DNA from: Verrucomicrobiota bacterium
GTDB lineage: Bacteria; Verrucomicrobiota; Verrucomicrobiia; Limisphaerales; JACRJZ01
Assembly (NCBI GenBank): GCA_016219875.1
Contig: JACRJZ010000150.1
Span: 870-64,869, forward strand
Reading direction: 5' to 3'
Length of the DNA: 64,000 bases
Part shown: piece after piece, positions 30,783-62,486 of the stretch
How the letters are laid out: each line of letters opens with the position of its first letter
Numbering within the stretch: position 1 is the stretch's first letter
Notes under the pieces: model-generated
Seen by the model: the letters and a program-made list of their open reading frames with translations, nothing else
The model's database searches: none
What the model was told of the DNA's origin: nothing
Translations under genes and position numbers: made by a program

Positions 30783-32537
30783 TCAGGGATGGGGCATGCT
30801 CTCAAACAGGCTGGGCGCGGCCTGACGGGCCAGGGCTTCCGACCGGTCGAGGATTTCGCTGTGGGATTCGCAGTTCAGCGCGAAGGCGGCGAGGGCCTGG
30901 GCCTCGGGCATCTTCAGGCGGCGGATGAGAAACTTGATCTTGGGCACGAAGGCCGGCGCCACGCTGATCTCATTCACGCCCAGGCCGAGCAGCAACGGAG
31001 TCAGGCTCGGATCACTGGCCATCTCGCCGCAGACGCCCGTCCAAATGCCGTTGGCGCGCGCGGCGTCGGTGGTCATCTTGATCAAGCGCAGGATCGACGG
31101 GTGGGTCGGCTCGTAGAGATGCGCGATCTTGGCGTTGAGCCGGTCCACGGCCAGCGAGTATTGGATCAGGTCGTTCGTGCCCAGGCTGAAGAACTTCACC
31201 CGCTTGGCCAGCATGTCCGCCGCCAGCGCCGCGGACGGGATTTCGATCATGATGCCCACATCCATGTTCTCGTCGAACGGCACGCCTTCCGCACGCAACT
31301 CGGCGCGGCACTCCTCGACCAGCGCGTTGGCTTGGTTCAATTCATTCAAGCCGGAAATCATTGGATACATCATCTTCACGTTGCCTTCGGCGCTGGCGCG
31401 CAGAATGGCCCGAAGCTGCTTGCGAAAAAGGTCCTTCTCGTGAAGACAGAACCGGATGGCGCGCCAGCCCAGAAACGGGTTCATCTCCGGCGCCACGTTC
31501 AGATGCGAGATGAACTTGTCTCCGCCGAGGTCCAGGGTGCGGATGATGACGGGATGGGGTTTCAGCAGGGCCGCGACCTGGCGATAAGCCGAATACTGCT
31601 CCTCCTCGGTCGGCAGGCTGGTGCGGTTGATGAACAGGTATTCCGTGCGGTACAGCCCGACGCCTTCCGCGCCGCTGTCCATGACATCCTGGGCCTCAGC
31701 GGGCAGCTCAATGTTCGCGGAGAGCGCAATGGGTGAGCCGTCCAGAGTAACCGAGGCCTTATCGCGGGTTTCGCGGAGCTTCTCCTCGAGGCCGACCTGG
31801 CGCTTCACGAGCTGGCCGTACTCGAACAGCGTCTGGTCGGTCGGGCTGGTGATGAGCAGGCCGTTGAATCCGTCAATCAGGACGTGCTGGCCGGTGCGGA
31901 GTTCGGTGCTGGCCGTGTTCAAGCCCACGACCGCCGGGATGCGCAACGAGCGGGCCATGATGGCCGTATGGGAAGTCCGGCCCCCAATGTCCGTGGCGAA
32001 ACCCAGGACCATCCTCTTGTCCAGCACCGCCGTGCGCGACGGCGACAGATCGTTGGCGATGACGATGCACGGCTCGGTCAGATGCGCCAAGTCGATGCTT
32101 TCGCCGCGCCCCAGCAACACGTCGAGCACCCGCTGGGTGACGTCGCGCATGTCCGCGACCCGCTCCCGCAAAAAGTCGTCTTCGATCGCCGCCAGCGCGG
32201 CGGTGTAACTCTCGGCAGCGAGGTGAAATGCCGTCTCGACGTTGAGTTTCTCTTCCTGGATGCGCCGCGTCGCCTCATCTACCAGAGCGGGATCTTCGAG
32301 GACGAGGAGGTGGGCGTCGAAGATGCCGGCGTCTTTGGAGCCGATGTTCTTCGTGACCTTCTGTTGTACGGCCAGAACCTGCTGGCGCGTCTCCAGCATC
32401 GCCTGCTCCAGACGTTGAATGTGCTGCGGGATGTCGGCTTCCGTGATGGGGTAGCGCGGGATGCTGGTCTGATCGGCCGTTCCGAGAACGAGCGCCTTTC
32501 CGTGGCACACGCCATCGGAAACGGGAATGCCGCGCAT
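30783..32537 (-). CDS. ptsI: phosphoenolpyruvate--protein phosphotransferase (PTS enzyme I)
   Basis: Active-site His motif GGRTSHTAIMARSLRIPAVVG. The N-terminal HPr-binding domain and PEP-utilising TIM barrel (GTNDLIQY) are present. The start is probably MRGIPVSDGV (ATG reverse at 32535-32537); the ORF extends to 32570. Confidence 0.8.
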   Translation of the reverse strand: MRGIPVSDGVCHGKALVLGTADQTSIPRYPITEADIPQHIQRLEQAMLETRQQVLAVQQKVTKNIGSKDAGIFDAHLLVLEDPALVDEATRRIQEEKLNVETAFHLAAESYTAALAAIEDDFLRERVADMRDVTQRVLDVLLGRGESIDLAHLTEPCIVIANDLSPSRTAVLDKRMVLGFATDIGGRTSHTAIMARSLRIPAVVGLNTASTELRTGQHVLIDGFNGLLITSPTDQTLFEYGQLVKRQVGLEEKLRETRDKASVTLDGSPIALSANIELPAEAQDVMDSGAEGVGLYRTEYLFINRTSLPTEEEQYSAYRQVAALLKPHPVIIRTLDLGGDKFISHLNVAPEMNPFLGWRAIRFCLHEKDLFRKQLRAILRASAEGNVKMMYPMISGLNELNQANALVEECRAELRAEGVPFDENMDVGIMIEIPSAALAADMLAKRVKFFSLGTNDLIQYSLAVDRLNAKIAHLYEPTHPSILRLIKMTTDAARANGIWTGVCGEMASDPSLTPLLLGLGVNEISVAPAFVPKIKFLIRRLKMPEAQALAAFALNCESHSEILDRSEALARQAAPSLFESMPHP

Positions 32538-32670
32538 GATTCGTTCGCCAGTTTGTGCTCCGACTGACATCGGGAGTGATTAAAGCGCGTTCCAGCCGTT
32601 TGAAAAGACATTCTTCGGGCCGGGCGCACAACGCACCTGGGCCGTGCCGCCACCCGCTTCACGGCGCGTT

Positions 32671-34326
32671 TCAGCGATACAGCCGCCGCTCCTGCTTCCA
32701 ATCCTTATTTTTGTCGTGCCCCATTTCTGCCACGCGCGGACGGCGTTCGCGCAGGCGCAGCGACTCGATGCCGCAGTAGTAGCCCTGGGACTGCGCGTTC
32801 TTGCCCACGCATTCCAGGCGCAAGGTGTGCGGGCCCGGCTCGGGCCAGAAATCGAGAAGATGAAACTCCTCGCTGACCAAACTGGTGTTGAAGAAGTCCA
32901 TCCTGCCGCCCAGCTTCACTCCGTCGAGGTAAGCCTGGTATTGGCCGAAGTCGTAGGACTTGGTCATGTTGAGCAGCAGGCGCAACGGCTCCTTCTTCGT
33001 CACCTCAAATGGAATCTCCAGCCAGGCGTTGCTGGTATCCCGCGGCGTGTAGAGCAGATGCGGGCCGTCGTAGAGATCGACTTGCTGGCGGGTGACACCG
33101 CCGGCGCCGTGATGCTTTTCGTCGGCGCAATCCCGCGCATACACCGTCGTCCTTTCGAGGCTGGCCAGCTTGCGTTCCCTGGCGTGGGGGGCGCGCGCGG
33201 TGAAGGTGGATTCGCCAGTTTGGTACCAGAACGCGACGCTGGCGTAATCATCCTCACGCTCGTTCCAACTCATGCTCTTGTTGTCCGGATTCTCATCCGG
33301 CGCGATCCACCCGAAGTGTTCCAAGGTCACCTTGATGCCGGTGTTGAACACGATCGGGTCCGGGATGTGCCAGCGATACGCGCTGGTGTGGCCGCCCACG
33401 ATGCCCCATTGGTTGAAGTACGGCACACCGAAGTAAGGCGTGCTCGTCCGCTTGAGACCCCAGGCGGAAAGGAAGTAGTCCTCCGTGCCCGTGCCCCAGA
33501 TGGAGGGCTTGGCTTCGCCGTCGATGTAGATCTTCTCGTCGCCTTCGCCGAACCAGGCCGGGCTGCGCGTGCGCACGGCCAGCACCGTGCCGACGTAGTG
33601 GCCCTTGCCTTTCGTGTCGAGCAGAACGTAGTCCTGGCCCTTCTGCGCCGGATACTCCTGGCGGTACTGCGCATGGAAGTAGGGCGTGTCCCGCGGCAGG
33701 CTCTTCTTTTTGATCCAATCCACGTTGTAATAGAGAAGGTTGATCGCCTTGTCCGACTCGTTCACGATCTCGATGCGGGCCGACTTCCGAAACGGCATGG
33801 GCCAAAAACAATTGTAGGAATCGGCGTCCTCGACCACCACCGGCTGACTCACGACCTCGTTGCGCTGGCCAAAGCAGTTGGCAAAGAAGTCGCCCACCGG
33901 GGCTTCGACGGCGGGCCTCTCGCGTCCGTCCCAGTAAATGCGCAGCAGCATTTCCTGGTGGTTGGCTGAGCCTTGCTTGGCCCAGTTCTGTGGTTCCGGC
34001 CCCAGGAACGTCAGCCAGAGATGCGTAATCACGCCGGAGCCTTGGACATCCAGCAGGACGTTGGTGTGACCGGGCTGGACGCGGAAGTTGTCCGAGTTGC
34101 TCCGCTCGCTCAGGTCGCCTTTGGGATCGGCTTGGCGATCGTATTTGCCATCGCGGCCTTCGCGGAACGTGGACGTCGCCCTCATGCTGCGGCCTGATTG
34201 GGGCCGGGCCAGGTCGTCAAGAGAACCGGCGCGGACGTTCGACGGCGTCAAGCCAGGGAGCCACACCGCCAGCAGAACGGCGGTGAGGGCGGCAATTCGG
34301 GGAGCGGGATGGAGCATAGTGCGCAT
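32671..34326 (-). CDS. secreted DUF2961 (glycoside hydrolase family 172-like) protein with a C-terminal extra domain
   Basis: Signal peptide. Conserved WGTGTEDYF motif plus YWDGRERP, CFWPMPF and YIDGE regions typical of DUF2961. Confidence 0.7.
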   Translation of the reverse strand: MRTMLHPAPRIAALTAVLLAVWLPGLTPSNVRAGSLDDLARPQSGRSMRATSTFREGRDGKYDRQADPKGDLSERSNSDNFRVQPGHTNVLLDVQGSGVITHLWLTFLGPEPQNWAKQGSANHQEMLLRIYWDGRERPAVEAPVGDFFANCFGQRNEVVSQPVVVEDADSYNCFWPMPFRKSARIEIVNESDKAINLLYYNVDWIKKKSLPRDTPYFHAQYRQEYPAQKGQDYVLLDTKGKGHYVGTVLAVRTRSPAWFGEGDEKIYIDGEAKPSIWGTGTEDYFLSAWGLKRTSTPYFGVPYFNQWGIVGGHTSAYRWHIPDPIVFNTGIKVTLEHFGWIAPDENPDNKSMSWNEREDDYASVAFWYQTGESTFTARAPHARERKLASLERTTVYARDCADEKHHGAGGVTRQQVDLYDGPHLLYTPRDTSNAWLEIPFEVTKKEPLRLLLNMTKSYDFGQYQAYLDGVKLGGRMDFFNTSLVSEEFHLLDFWPEPGPHTLRLECVGKNAQSQGYYCGIESLRLRERRPRVAEMGHDKNKDWKQERRLYR

Positions 34327-34417
34327 AACGATTTACGAATTGAACTGAGTTTGATGGCGCGGACTTTATCGGGCCTCATCCGGAATGCAAGGACTGAGGG
34401 AGGCAATTTCCAAACCC

Positions 34418-34507
34418 CGTAGCAGCCGACGTAAGAAGGCTTCGCTCAATTGCAGATTGCAGATTGCAGATTGCGGATTGGAGTTGGAGCCTCCTCATGT
34501 CGGCAGG
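34418..34507. repeat. family A element variant with a (CAGATTG)4 microsatellite in the loop
   Basis: Arm CGTAGCAGCCGACGTAAGAAGGCT; loop with CAGATTGCAGATTGCAGATTGCGGATTG (34453-34480); arm GGAGCCTCCTCATGTCGGCAG. The arms have diverged. Confidence 0.5.
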
Positions 34508-34544
34508 GCGTTGGAACTCTCAGCCCGCTTGCCGTTTCCAACGT

Positions 34545-34630
34545 CTGCAGGTTAGAAAACCTGCGCTACGGCAGACCAGAAAGTCTGCGCTACGAGTGCT
34601 CCCGAACCGAGCTTGATGCAGCCCTGCCTG
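34545..34630. repeat. family B element fragment
   Basis: CTGCAGGTTAGAAAACCTGCGCTACGGCAGACCAGAAAGTCTGCGCTACGAGTGCTCCCGAACCGAGCTTGATGCAGCCC, carrying the right-hand terminal inverted repeat only. Confidence 0.5.
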
Positions 34631-34700
34631 GCGTCGTTACGGTGATTTTCGCCATTGACGATTCTTCCTTCGCCCCCAATCTTCCCCCCCGCTTGTTCGC

Positions 34701-36866
34701 ATGAAAACCGTCTTGTTTGTCTGCACGGGGAATGTCTGCCGCAGTCCCATGGCAGAAGGGCTGTTCCGGCACGCCACGCAGGGTCGCTTCCGCGTCCTGT
34801 CGGCGGGCTTGGGCGCGGTCGCGGGCATGTCTCCCAGCGACTACGCGGTGCGGGCCATGCGCGAGCTGGGCGTGGACATCGCCGGCCTCCGCAGCCAGCC
34901 GCTCACGGGCGAGTTGGTGCAGCAGGCCGATTACATCATCGGCATGACCCGCGGCCACGTGGAAAGCATCCTGGTGCTCTATCCGCAGGCGGCGGAGAAG
35001 ACGTTTCTGCTCCGCGAATTCGATGACACGCTGGAAGAATACGAGCGGGACATCAACGACCCCATCGGCGGGTCGTACGATATTTACTGCCTCTGCCGCG
35101 ACCAGATCGAGCAGGGCATTTTCTCCATGTTGAAATTCATTGAACAGACCTCCGGCTCTCCGGCTCCCGCCAGCGTGCCGGCCGCCGTCCACAACATCGC
35201 CGTGGGCGCGGACCATGGCGGCTTCGAACTGAAGGAAACGCTCAAGCAACACCTGCAAACCGGCGGGTGGGCCGTGAGTGATTTCGGCGCGAAGTCCAAA
35301 GAGCCGTCGGATGATTACCCGGATTTCGCGCTGGCCGTGGCGCACAGCGTGGCCGATCACCAGAACGACGTCGGGGTGCTGATCTGCACCAGCGGCATCG
35401 GCATGAGCATCGCCGCCAACAAAGTGCCCGGCGTGCGCGCGGCCCTGGCCGTGGACGACGCGATGGCGGCCGTGGCGCGCCGGCACAACAACGCCAACGT
35501 GGTCTGCCTTTCGAGCAAGGCCACACCCGAACAGGCAAAGAAGATCGTCGAGGCGTTCCTCGCGGCGAAATTCGAGGGCGGCCGCCACGAGCGGCGCATC
35601 AACAAGTTGGAAGCCGGCTGGAGAGGCCCCGCCTACAAGCTGCAGAGCGTTGATCCGGAGATTTACGAAGTCATCCAGCACGAGCGCCAGCGTCAGCAAG
35701 AGAACATTGAGCTGATCGCGAGCGAGAATTTCACCAGCCCCGCCGTCATGGAGGCGCAAGGTTCGGTGCTGACAAACAAATACGCCGAAGGCTATCCCTC
35801 CAAACGCTGGTACGGCGGCTGTGAGAACGTCGATACCTCCGAAACGCTGGCCATCGAACGGGCCAGGAAGCTCTTCGGCGCCGAACACGTCAACGTCCAG
35901 CCCCATTCCGGCAGCCAGGCCAACATGGCCTGCTACTTCGCCTTCCTGAAGCCCGGCGACCGGATGCTGACCATGGACCTCAGCCACGGCGGCCATCTGA
36001 CCCACGGCAACAAGGTGAATTTCTCCGGGAAGTTTTTTGAGATCGTCCATTACGGCGTCAGCAAGGACGACGAGCGCATCGACTACAACCAGCTCGCCGC
36101 GCTGGCCCGCCAGCACAAGCCCCGGATGATCACTGTGGGGGCCAGCGCCTATCCGCGCTTGATCGACTTCCAGCGCCTGAGCGAGATCGCGCAGGAAACC
36201 GGTGCGATGCTCCTGGCGGACATTGCGCACATTGCGGGGCTTGTCGTCGCCGGACTGCACCCCAGCCCGGTGCCGTACGCCGACTTCGTCACCACCACCA
36301 CGCACAAGACGCTCCGTGGCCCGCGCGGCGGCCTGATCATCTGCAAGGCGAAATACGCGAAGGAAATTGACTCGCAGGTGTTCCCCGGTATCCAGGGCGG
36401 CCCGCTGGAACATGTCATCGCCGCCAAGGCCGTCTGCTTTCAGGAGGCGCTCCGGCCGGAGTTCAAGTTTTACCAGCAACAAATCCTGGCCAATGCCCAG
36501 GCCCTGGCTGACGGCATGAAGCGAAACAGTTTCCGCCTGGTGAGCGGCGGCACGGACAATCACCTCATGCTGGTCGATGTGGGCGCGCGCGGCCTGACCG
36601 GCAAGGAATGCCAACTCGCGCTCGACGAAGCCGGCATCACCGTCAACAAGAACACCATCCCGTTTGAAACCCGCTCGCCGTTCCAGGCCAGCGGGGTCCG
36701 CCTCGGCACGCCGGCCGTGACCACACGCGGCATGAAGGAGAAAGAGATGGCCGCCATCGCCGACATGATCAGCGAGGTGTTGATGGACATCAAGAACCTT
36801 GACGCCGCCCGCAAGGTAAGGCAACGTGTCCGCGAACTGACTGCCGGATTCCCCCTGCCTTACTGA
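34701..36866 (+). CDS. single 721-codon ORF encoding three enzymes in frame: low-MW protein tyrosine/arginine phosphatase, ribose-5-phosphate isomerase B, serine hydroxymethyltransferase
   Basis: LMW-PTP P-loop [13 protein letters not shown] plus DPIGG. Rpi[14 protein letters not shown] and active-site [48 protein letters not shown] and PLP-lysine [13 protein letters not shown]. No stop codon between the domains; the linkers are [16 protein letters not shown] and [26 protein letters not shown]. Confidence 0.7.
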
Positions 36867-37015
36867 ATTTGTCGTTCGAGTAAGTCGTCCGGTGTCTCCA
36901 ACACACAGGCTGTTGGCTTGAAAACGATTCAAGCCCCTGGCGAAACGAATCTGGTTCCAGAGAAAAGACAGCCGTGCGGCGCCCTGCGCCACTAACATTG
37001 AACTAACTTTTACCT

Positions 37016-38692
<1,677 letters not shown>

Positions 38693-38733: not shown

Positions 38734-38939
38734 GGGCTGCACCAAGCTCCCGCCCGGCGCACAGGTAACGCAGGTTTTCAACCTGCCGTAGCGCCGACTT
38801 GCAGTCGGCAAGGCCGTGAAACGTCCCGCCGGCTGGCCTCTTCCAACGCTCGCCGGTTGGAAAACCGGCGCTACGGCAGACTGGAAAGTCTGCGCTACGA
38901 GTGCTCCCGAACCGAGCTTGATGCAACCTGCCGTGTCCG
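38734..38939. repeat. family B MITE-like element, complete, with terminal inverted repeats
   Basis: Left end GGGCTGCACCAAGCTCC, right end GAGCTTGATGCAACC. Internal GTAACGCAGGTTTTCAACCTGCCGTAGCGCC, GCCGACTTGCAGTCGGC, GCCGGTTGGAAAACCGGCGCTACGGCAGACTGGAAAGTCTGCGCTAC. Confidence 0.65.
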
Positions 38940-40833: not shown

Positions 40834-40974
40834 ATGAACAAAGTCTGGTTGCTTGGTTTCGTCCTGACGGTGGCGCTCTTCTTTGCTGGCTGCGCTTCGT
40901 CTGGCAGCGGTTCCACGGGGACTTCCACCCGCATTGGCGGCCACATCGATACCGGCGTTCAGAAACAGTTCTGA
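40834..40974 (+). CDS. small lipoprotein (46 aa), entericidin-like; not in the ORF track
   Basis: ATG at 40834. MNKVWLLGFVLTVALFFAGCASSGSGSTGTSTRIGGHIDTGVQKQF has lipobox FFAGC. Its size and Gly/Ser/Thr-rich mature part resemble the entericidin EcnA/EcnB family. Confidence 0.45.
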   Translation: MNKVWLLGFVLTVALFFAGCASSGSGSTGTSTRIGGHIDTGVQKQF

Positions 40975-40987
40975 GAGGTTTCACCGC

Positions 40988-42121
40988 ATGAGCCAATCCC
41001 CGCCACGCACTGCCGACGACGAAACCATCATGCGCCTGGCTCTGCGCCTGGCGCGGCGGGCGTACGGGCGGACCTCGCCAAATCCAATGGTCGGCGCAGT
41101 GCTCGTGAAGCGCGGTCAGATCATCGGCCAGGGCTGGCACCATCGCGCGGGTGAACCGCACGCGGAGATCGAGGCGCTGCGCGAGGCCGAGCAGCACGAC
41201 CACAGCCTGAAAGGCGCGACGCTCTACGTAACGCTCGAACCGTGCTGCACCCACGGCCGCACGCCGCCTTGCACGGAAGCGATCATCCGCGCCGGCCTCA
41301 AGCGCGTGGTCGTCGCCGCCACCGATCCGAATCCCGACCACGCTGGCCGGGGTTTCAAGGTGCTCAAGCGCGCCGGCATCGCCGTCACGGTGGGCGTGCT
41401 GGCGGAGGAAGCTTTGCGACTGAACGAAGCTTTCAACCATTGGATCGTCCACCGCACGCCCTTCGTCACCGTCAAGGCTGCGATGACACTTGACGGTAAG
41501 ATCGCCACCGCCAGCGGCGACTCCAAGTGGATCACTGGAGAGAAAGCCCGCGCCGCCGGCATGAAGCTGCGGCAGGGATCGGACGCCATCCTCGTCGGCG
41601 TGAACACGGTGCTGGCGGATGATCCGAATCTGACGGCCAGAGGTCGGAGGTCAGAAGTCAGAGGTCAGAAGACGCTGCGCCGAATCATTCTCGATTCGCG
41701 GGGGCGCACGCCGTTGACCTCGCGGGTGGTGGCGGATGAATTGGCCTGCCTAACGACCATTGTGGTCACGAAGGTGGCGCCGGCGCGAAGAGTCGCACGG
41801 TTGGCGAAGCGCGTGGGCGTCGTCGTGGCACCGGCGCGGGACGGGCGCGTGAACCTGCCCTGGCTGCTGAAGCAGCTCGGCGCCGAGAACGTCACGAGCC
41901 TCCTCGTGGAAGGCGGCGGTGAAATCAACGCCTCGTTCCTGCTCGGCGGCCTGGCGCACCGTGGCGTCTTCTTCTATGCGCCGAAGATCATCGGCGGGCG
42001 CGACGCGCCTCCAGGCGTGGCCGGCAAGGGCATATCGCACCTCGCCGATGGCCTGACGCTGCGCGAGGTGGCATGGAAACGCCTCGGCCCAGACTGGATG
42101 CTCACGGCGCGGATCGGCTGA
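40988..42121 (+). CDS. ribD: bifunctional riboflavin biosynthesis protein RibD (pyrimidine deaminase / reductase)
   Basis: ATG at 40988 gives MSQSPPRTADDETIMRLALRLA. Deaminase zinc motifs HAEIEAL and LEPCCTHGRTPPC. The reductase domain is present (VTVKAAMTLDGKIA). Confidence 0.85.
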   Translation: MSQSPPRTADDETIMRLALRLARRAYGRTSPNPMVGAVLVKRGQIIGQGWHHRAGEPHAEIEALREAEQHDHSLKGATLYVTLEPCCTHGRTPPCTEAIIRAGLKRVVVAATDPNPDHAGRGFKVLKRAGIAVTVGVLAEEALRLNEAFNHWIVHRTPFVTVKAAMTLDGKIATASGDSKWITGEKARAAGMKLRQGSDAILVGVNTVLADDPNLTARGRRSEVRGQKTLRRIILDSRGRTPLTSRVVADELACLTTIVVTKVAPARRVARLAKRVGVVVAPARDGRVNLPWLLKQLGAENVTSLLVEGGGEINASFLLGGLAHRGVFFYAPKIIGGRDAPPGVAGKGISHLADGLTLREVAWKRLGPDWMLTARIG

Positions 42122-62288: not shown

Positions 62289-62486
62289 GGGCTGCATCAA
62301 GCTCCCGCCCGGCGCACCGGGTAGCGCAGGTTTTCCAACCTGCCGTAGCGCCGACTTGCAGTCGGCCAGGCCGTGAAACTTTCAGCCGGCTGGCCTCGCC
62401 CAACGCTCGCCGGTTGGAAAGCCGGCGCTACGGCAGGCTGGAAAGCCTGCGCTACGAAGGCTCCCGAACCGAGCTTGATGCAGCCC
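62289..62486. repeat. family B MITE-like element, complete (198 bp, 16-17-bp terminal inverted repeats)
   Basis: Left GGGCTGCATCAAGCTCC, right GAGCTTGATGCAGCCC. The internal modules match 38734..38939 almost base for base. Confidence 0.7.

Follow-up and report, generated by a model that had tools for sequence, protein, structure and literature searches.

In a 64,000-nucleotide stretch of DNA from a Verrucomicrobiota bacterium (assembly GCA_016219875.1, contig JACRJZ010000150.1, positions 870 to 64,869 of the forward strand; hereafter the window), three enzymes are encoded in a single reading frame: a protein tyrosine phosphatase of low molecular weight (LMW-PTP), ribose-5-phosphate isomerase B (RpiB) and serine hydroxymethyltransferase (SHMT). 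Is this frame a real gene fusion, is it translated into one protein, and what might be gained by joining a phosphatase to these two metabolic enzymes? We conclude that the locus is very probably a genuine, evolutionarily fixed gene fusion, that a single full-length polypeptide is in all likelihood made from it, and that this protein most likely carries three activities.

Translation of positions 34701-36866 (+) gives 721 codons and then a stop, with no internal stops, and the ATG at 34701 is the earliest start codon past the upstream in-frame stop. The translation was searched with Pfam profiles and with NCBIfam models that have curated cut-offs. LMWPc (PF01451) matched residues 4-139 (model positions 1-139 of 144, E = 5e-30, 105 bits against a gathering threshold of 23.2), LacAB_rpiB (PF02502) matched residues 166-303 (model positions 1-138 of 138, E = 8e-53, 178.5 bits) and SHMT (PF00464) matched residues 314-690 (model positions 1-399 of 399, E = 4.5e-168, 559 bits). 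The NCBIfam SHMT model NF000586 scored 632.7 against a cut-off of 335, covering model positions 1-403 of 404, and the rpiB equivalog TIGR01120 scored 152.9 against 138.65. The NCBIfam equivalogs for LacA, LacB and erythrulose-4-phosphate isomerase all scored far under their cut-offs on the RpiB domain. Thus, the original prediction of one uninterrupted frame encoding three enzymes, made from the sequence alone, is borne out by the translation and by three complete Pfam domains in frame.

A long open frame is weak evidence in this DNA. The window is 64% G+C, with 84-87% G+C at third codon positions (GC3), and an antisense open reading frame (ORF) of 802 residues (34590-36998, -) spans the entire fusion gene but found no match in a Pfam search. 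We rejected this antisense frame as a gene and regard it as a shadow ORF of a GC-rich gene (GC3 near 85%). The case for the fusion exceeds chance because three strong domain matches lie in one frame and because the fused frame is kept in independent assemblies.

NCBI already has the identical protein (P0001), encoded on a 64.9-kb contig of a metagenome-assembled genome (MAG) and named 'ribose 5-phosphate isomerase B [Verrucomicrobia bacterium]'. The best 120 database relatives are 697-735 residues long and 74-81% identical over 97-100% coverage, and all of them contain PF01451, PF02502 and PF00464. We also scanned the GTDB species representatives, extracted stop-to-stop frames from 80 loci and placed the domains in them by BLASTP. 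In 33 of these loci (L001-L031, L034, L055), labeled Verrucomicrobiia, Limisphaerales, Verrucomicrobiales or 'Ca. Angelobacter', the three domains share a single stop-free frame, encoding proteins of 719-725 residues with a common start, M-[KR]-T-[VI]-L-F-[VI]-C-T-G-N. When P0123, a distant relative with 46% identity to the window protein, was used as the query, about 117 further tri-domain clusters were retrieved, 45-54% identical to P0123, some of them labeled Lentisphaerae or Verrucomicrobiales. Orthologues with the same fusion, which the original prediction had suggested looking for, are therefore present among both the best database relatives and the representative genomes, and within the window's clade they are uniformly fused, the opposite of the uniformly separate genes that would have spoken against the fusion. 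The expectation that such a protein would be unusual did not hold; such fusions are the rule in many Verrucomicrobiota and in related lineages of the Planctomycetes-Verrucomicrobia-Chlamydiae (PVC) group, and one was reported in 2008 for Minf_1669.

Two side observations concern the taxonomic and architectural edges of this set. Several fusions (L008, L024, P0022, P0061, P0073, P0083, P0098) lie on MAG contigs labeled Saccharimonadales, Baltobacteraceae, Eisenbacteria, 'Ca. Acidoferrum' or Methylomirabilota; at 72-76% identity, they are probably mis-binned Verrucomicrobial DNA. Three SHMT proteins (P0134, 811 residues; P0201, 728 residues; P0144, 608 residues) have N-terminal regions of about 150-400 residues that are unmatched by the phosphatase and RpiB domains of the window protein, and may be other SHMT fusions.

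The joints between the domains were examined in an alignment of 73 tri-fusions, 45-81% identical to the window protein, and in an AlphaFold monomer model of the fusion protein, which has a mean predicted local distance difference test score (pLDDT) of 89.8 and a predicted template modeling score (pTM) of 0.67. Linker 1, between the phosphatase and RpiB, varies in sequence and in length, from 13-19 residues among 34 close orthologues to 10-26 in a wider set, and its residues 152-161, with pLDDT below 50, are the sole disordered part of the model. Linker 2, between RpiB and SHMT, also varies in sequence, while its length is 10 residues in 33 of the 34 close orthologues and 12 in most of the distant tri-fusions. 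Here the pLDDT is 63-71, and the helix at residues 295-307 of RpiB is predicted to pass almost directly into the N-terminal helix of SHMT at residues 310-317. The RpiB domain aligns over its full length with the solved structures 6mu0 and 1o1x, including the C-terminal FEGGRHxRRIxK helix. The first of the two short linkers originally proposed is therefore sound, whereas the second had been drawn too long, as most of it belongs to the canonical C-terminal helix of RpiB seen in 6mu0 and 1o1x. Insertions and deletions in the linkers of tri-fusions are of whole codons only. The SHMT part of the model superimposes on Bacillus stearothermophilus SHMT (1kkj) with a template modeling (TM) score of 0.97 and 61% identity. 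A Foldseek search against the PDB returned only single-domain SHMT matches for the fusion, and no solved chain there covered more than one of the three domains (longest alignment about 413 columns).

A further question is whether the frame yields one product or several. The fusion could exist only at the gene level, with internal initiation or proteolysis of the linkers freeing the phosphatase, RpiB and SHMT as several proteins from one ORF. The disordered linker 1 would be accessible to proteases, many distant tri-fusions retain a methionine at the ancestral RpiB start, and residue 303 is a hydrophobic residue or Met, being Leu (TTG) in the window and Met in 15 of the 73 tri-fusions. Residue 303, however, aligns with the hydrophobic Ile/Leu position of the RpiB C-terminal helix in the solved structures and is therefore not a new start. 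At the RpiB junction, the 34 orthologues of the window's clade (HNIAVGADH) have no conserved in-frame ATG, GTG or TTG. Synonymous-site entropy over the same 34 codon-aligned orthologues is 0.77-0.84 at both junctions, above the gene mean of 0.67, so no nucleotide-level signal is preserved there; the lowest values fall within domains, at residues 55-70 and 396-415. No Shine-Dalgarno-like sequence was found before in-frame ATG, GTG or TTG codons at the junctions, a weak test given that the annotated start has none either, and a scan of 34200-37200 found no terminator-like site on the plus strand inside the ORF. The fixed length of linker 2 also suggests a structural constraint on the joined state. 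The additional products from internal GTG or TTG starts that had been envisaged are thus without support, with neither a conserved junction start nor excess synonymous-site conservation, and we consider separate products from this ORF quite improbable.

In the phosphatase domain the P-loop C8-T-G-N-V-C-R14-S15 (34722-34745) matches C-X5-R-(S/T), and a general-acid D120-P121 motif lies at 35058-35063. Cys8 and Arg14 are present in all 57 of the 73 aligned tri-fusions whose called N-terminus includes the P-loop, and D120-P121 is invariant in all 73. RpiB contributes D171-H172, Cys229 (35385-35387), His262 (35484-35486), N263, R295 and R299, every one of which is invariant in 73 of 73 tri-fusions. 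We take its Cys, His and Arg residues to correspond to Cys66, His99, Arg133 and Arg137 of the Escherichia coli enzyme. The pyridoxal 5'-phosphate (PLP) lysine of SHMT, K536 (36306-36308), lies in a T-T-T-H-K-T motif and is invariant in the same alignment. Since the catalytic residues are conserved in the tri-fusions, all three domains look catalytically competent, and the claim that the motifs of all three are intact was confirmed at the coordinates of the P-loop, Cys229 and Lys536.

It is conceivable that one or two of the domains are instead catalytically dead and serve regulation or scaffolding, for example with a pseudophosphatase regulating SHMT or RpiB in response to a phospho-ligand that it senses. 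The lack of an obvious metabolic connection between the phosphatase and the other two enzymes would suit such a role. But every tri-fusion whose sequence reaches the N-terminus keeps Cys8, Arg14 and Asp120, the RpiB residues D171, H172, C229, H262, R295 and R299 and the SHMT residue K536 are conserved likewise, and the domains score above curated equivalog and subfamily cut-offs, making a dead domain very unlikely. Least credible of all, to the point of being nearly negligible, is a sequencing or assembly artifact in which two stops or frameshifts went missing from what are three distinct genes in the organism: the sequence does come from a metagenome-assembled contig and stop-free frames arise easily at a GC3 near 85%, as the antisense ORF without a Pfam match illustrates, but the same uninterrupted frame and protein length recur in 33 independently assembled species-representative genomes, the tri-domain architecture occurs in more than 230 distinct protein clusters, and linker lengths always differ by whole codons.

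Among solved structures, the phosphatase domain is closest to two YwlE arginine phosphatases, 4pic (E = 1.8e-24) and 1zgg. Phosphoarginine specificity is reported to depend critically on a Thr at the fifth P-loop position, Thr11 in YwlE (PMC7772506, citing Fuhrmann et al. 2013). YwlE and PtpB, which are phosphoarginine phosphatases, have this Thr, whereas the window protein has Val12 and does not fit the YwlE type at this position. Across the 57 tri-fusions with a P-loop, position 5 is V in 28, I in 20, L in one, T in four and S in four, so that 48 of 57 have V or I. With Val or Ile in place of Thr, a phosphotyrosine-type or other specificity is predicted, rather than a phosphoarginine-type one.

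An identity of the first domain as an arsenate reductase was considered and rejected, as the ArsC equivalog models scored 49-56 bits against cut-offs of 158-215. The Cys residues near positions 82 and 89 that we take to be those of pI258 ArsC are also absent from the phosphatase domain of the window.

Two annotation problems touch the same domain. The 180-residue PDB chain 4egs_A is deposited as 'Ribose 5-phosphate isomerase RpiB' and matches the phosphatase domain (residues 3-137, E = 3.6e-21), not the RpiB domain; this label was probably inherited by mistake from the ptp-rpiB neighborhood or from the fusion. In 16 of the 73 tri-fusions (P0123, P0121, P0186 and 13 others) the called gene starts at an internal Met17 (MAE…) and loses the catalytic P-loop. 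These starts are probably mis-called, and a longer gene call in P0271, a cluster-mate of P0186, recovers a CTGNSCRS P-loop.

Returning to the fusion as one protein, we propose that translation from the ATG at 34701 would give a 78.6-kDa chain whose intact folds and catalytic residues suggest a Cys-dependent phosphatase, the isomerization of ribose-5-phosphate and ribulose-5-phosphate, and a PLP- and folate-dependent interconversion of serine and glycine. RpiB and bacterial SHMT are obligate homodimers in their solved structures, with active sites that draw on both subunits. Because these two homodimeric enzymes are joined here by a short connector of fixed length, the protein is likely to be a homodimer or higher oligomer with an RpiB-SHMT core, by analogy with the separate enzymes. 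From this core the phosphatase would hang on its flexible tether of 13-19 residues.

The benefit of such an arrangement is most likely fixed stoichiometry and co-regulation. Enzymes that supply nucleotide precursors would be co-expressed at a fixed 1:1:1 ratio and co-localized, one providing ribose-5-phosphate for phosphoribosyl pyrophosphate (PRPP) and another providing glycine and one-carbon units for purines and thymidylate (dTMP). Substrate channeling is unlikely, since the RpiB and SHMT reactions have no common intermediate. A more direct coupling can be imagined, in which the phosphatase works in cis on the RpiB-SHMT core, at a phosphorylated residue, as a joint switch of ribose-5-phosphate and one-carbon supply, or hydrolyzes a small phosphorylated metabolite that feeds these enzymes. 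The idea starts from the distribution of the genes, as a YwlE-like phosphatase neighbors rpiB and glyA in Firmicutes, Omnitrophota and Planctomycetia and is covalently tethered in Verrucomicrobiota, and we regard it as a rather unlikely but still reasonable guess.

Unfused and half-fused relatives indicate how the fusion may have arisen. The genes ptp, rpiB and glyA abut or overlap in different frames in four Omnitrophota MAGs (L049, L051, L068, L073) and two Planctomycetia MAGs (L053, L059). In L049, in three loci from Desulfobacterota (L044, L045, L048) and in one from Fibrobacterota (L064), rpiB and glyA share a frame, with one stop and about 3-10 codons between them; a single stop loss would therefore fuse them. 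RpiB-SHMT di-fusions of 555-577 residues occur in Kiritimatiellia and in Victivallales/Lentisphaerae, and a look at 4 kb on either side of these loci turned up no same-strand ptp gene. The link drawn originally to a conserved ptp-rpiB-glyA neighborhood is well founded in the adjacent genes of the Omnitrophota and Planctomycetia MAGs, and in Staphylococcus aureus ptpB adjoins glyA. In Bacillus subtilis the gene order is ywlE-ywlF(rpiB)-ywlG-glyA.

Most of the distant tri-fusions (P0302-P0420) preserve a further trace. In the alignment columns at window residues 160-166 they have an internal Met exactly where a stand-alone RpiB starts (…MK[IVM]AIGADH), and in the window's clade this Met has been replaced (…HNIAVGADH). 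Judged from the alignment, the internal Met is a fossil of the ancestral RpiB start codon, and it might still permit internal initiation in the distant lineages. We propose that a ywlE-like ptp, rpiB and glyA would have been neighbors in an old operon, and that the stop codons between them would have been lost in this Verrucomicrobial lineage. A neighbor-joining tree of SHMT domains, rough, without support values and indicative only, nests one di-fusion group within the tri-fusions and puts another (L046, L047, L050) elsewhere; the two separate positions suggest more than one fusion or domain-loss event.

Several points weigh against this account. In the same tree the unfused loci of Planctomycetia and Omnitrophota (L051, L053, L059) come out as the sister group of the window's clade, within a larger group that includes other fusions. 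Fusion, fission or domain loss has probably happened more than once. That one 78.6-kDa protein is made in vivo is something we infer from the gene, and the lack of a Shine-Dalgarno-like sequence before the annotated start gives the search for such sites at the junctions little power. The oligomer model rests on the separate enzymes, and the domain arrangement in the monomer prediction, at a pTM of 0.67, is uncertain. The nucleotide-precursor rationale is likewise inferred and leaves the place of the phosphatase in the unit unexplained.

We compared the window protein to known systems. In the genome paper of Methylacidiphilum infernorum V4, Minf_1669 is called an 'unusual protein' in which SHMT and RpiB domains are combined with a low-molecular-weight phosphatase domain (Hou et al. 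2008, Biol Direct 3:26; PMC2474590). Going by this published description, and not by sequence or domain order, Minf_1669 resembles the window protein in domain content and phylum. The window protein has its relatives in Verrucomicrobiia MAGs from soil and freshwater, which shows that the fusion is not tied to methanotrophy. The neighborhoods of Firmicutes, Omnitrophota and Planctomycetia contain the same three enzymes in the same order, abutting or overlapping in the Omnitrophota and Planctomycetia MAGs, but encode separate proteins with stop codons between them, as do the separate genes of S. aureus, in which ptpB lies directly upstream of glyA; in the window they form one frame. The di-fusions of Kiritimatiellia, Victivallales and Lentisphaerae share the RpiB-to-SHMT junction in one ORF but lack the phosphatase domain. 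Stand-alone RpiB (6mu0, 1o1x) aligns over its full length with the RpiB domain of the window protein, with the catalytic residues in place, and stand-alone SHMT (1kkj) is close to the SHMT domain in sequence and fold, but each of these solved chains covers one domain only. In open-access papers and bioRxiv we found no biochemical study of the fusion, and its sole mention was the 2008 genome paper. Thus, the PTP-RpiB-SHMT fusion is already known, conserved and functionally uncharacterized, present in several hundred distinct public sequence clusters and on record since 2008, and does not amount to a new kind of system.

The features of the fusion gene and its surroundings are collected in the Table.

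Table. Positions of the fusion gene, its parts and neighboring features in the window.
Feature	Position	Strand	Residues	Basis or remark
Complete fusion gene	34701..36866	+		721 codons + TGA stop; predicted 78.6 kDa
LMW-PTP (YwlE-like) phosphatase domain	34701..35141	+	1-147	PF01451, 105 bits; pLDDT 88-98
Linker 1, putative flexible tether	35142..35192	+	148-164 (17 residues)	Variable length and sequence; low pLDDT
Ribose-5-phosphate isomerase B domain	35193..35609	+	165-303	PF02502, TIGR01120; end-to-end alignment with 6mu0 and 1o1x
Linker 2, short fixed-length connector	35610..35639	+	304-313 (10 residues)	Orthologue alignment, AlphaFold
Serine hydroxymethyltransferase domain	35640..36863	+	314-721	PF00464, 559 bits; NF000586, 632.7
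rho	37016-38692	+		Directly downstream of fusion gene
RibD	40883-42121	+		About 4 kb downstream of fusion gene
DUF2961 protein	32671-34326	-		Signal-peptide-like N-terminus; divergently transcribed neighbor
Phosphotransferase system (PTS) enzyme I (PtsI)	30783-32570	-		Neighbor
Structured intergenic repeat, about 145 nt, three copies	34480-34625, 38785-38930, 62342-62485	+		35-nt core

In 25 of the 33 tri-fusion loci, as in the window, rho directly follows the fusion gene. The scan picked up no terminator-like site between the two genes, which lie 149 nt apart, so their co-transcription is possible. In nine loci with an unfused glyA, ribD follows it by about 0.5-1.5 kb, and the window may keep a stretched form of this old glyA…ribD arrangement. 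The synteny with rho and ribD is consistent with a housekeeping role. As an observation on the neighbor itself, Rho of the window has a Pro/Ala-rich N-terminal extension of about 140 residues ahead of its Rho_N domain.

Riboswitches for 5-aminoimidazole-4-carboxamide riboside 5'-triphosphate (ZTP), tetrahydrofolate (THF) and glycine are common ahead of glyA. A riboswitch leader upstream of the fusion gene was considered and rejected, as Rfam gave nothing at gathering scores across the whole window and only a chance-level match in 34250-34760 (16.9 bits against a cut-off of 100). Scans of 34200-37200 found no promoter-like sites and three terminator-like sites, all on the minus strand and in no excess over chance.

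One copy of the intergenic repeat precedes the fusion gene, one comes right behind rho and one is close to the window end. Two copies share a 35-nt core exactly and the third differs from it by two mismatches, where none would be expected by chance. The repeat folds into a long-stem multi-hairpin with a minimum free energy (MFE) of -64.3 kcal/mol (z = -3.6). It matches no Rfam family and is absent from all 80 related loci, and looks like a lineage-specific element resembling a repetitive extragenic palindrome (REP) or miniature inverted-repeat transposable element (MITE).

The fusion bears on how these genomes are read. Annotation names cover one domain only, 'ribose 5-phosphate isomerase B' at NCBI and 'glycine hydroxymethyltransferase' or 'RpiB/LacA/LacB family sugar-phosphate isomerase' at JGI. 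As a result, glyA, rpiB or the phosphatase can be counted as absent in error when the metabolism of Verrucomicrobial MAGs is reconstructed. As a 'Rosetta stone' case, the fusion points to phylum-wide selection for keeping a YwlE-like phosphatase, RpiB and SHMT together, and it allows a link between YwlE-like phosphatases and the metabolism of nucleotide precursors to be tested with one recombinant protein. If the phosphatase did act on the RpiB-SHMT core or on a metabolite that feeds it, a widespread subfamily of phosphatases would gain a role in metabolism, unlike the part that YwlE plays in protein quality control.

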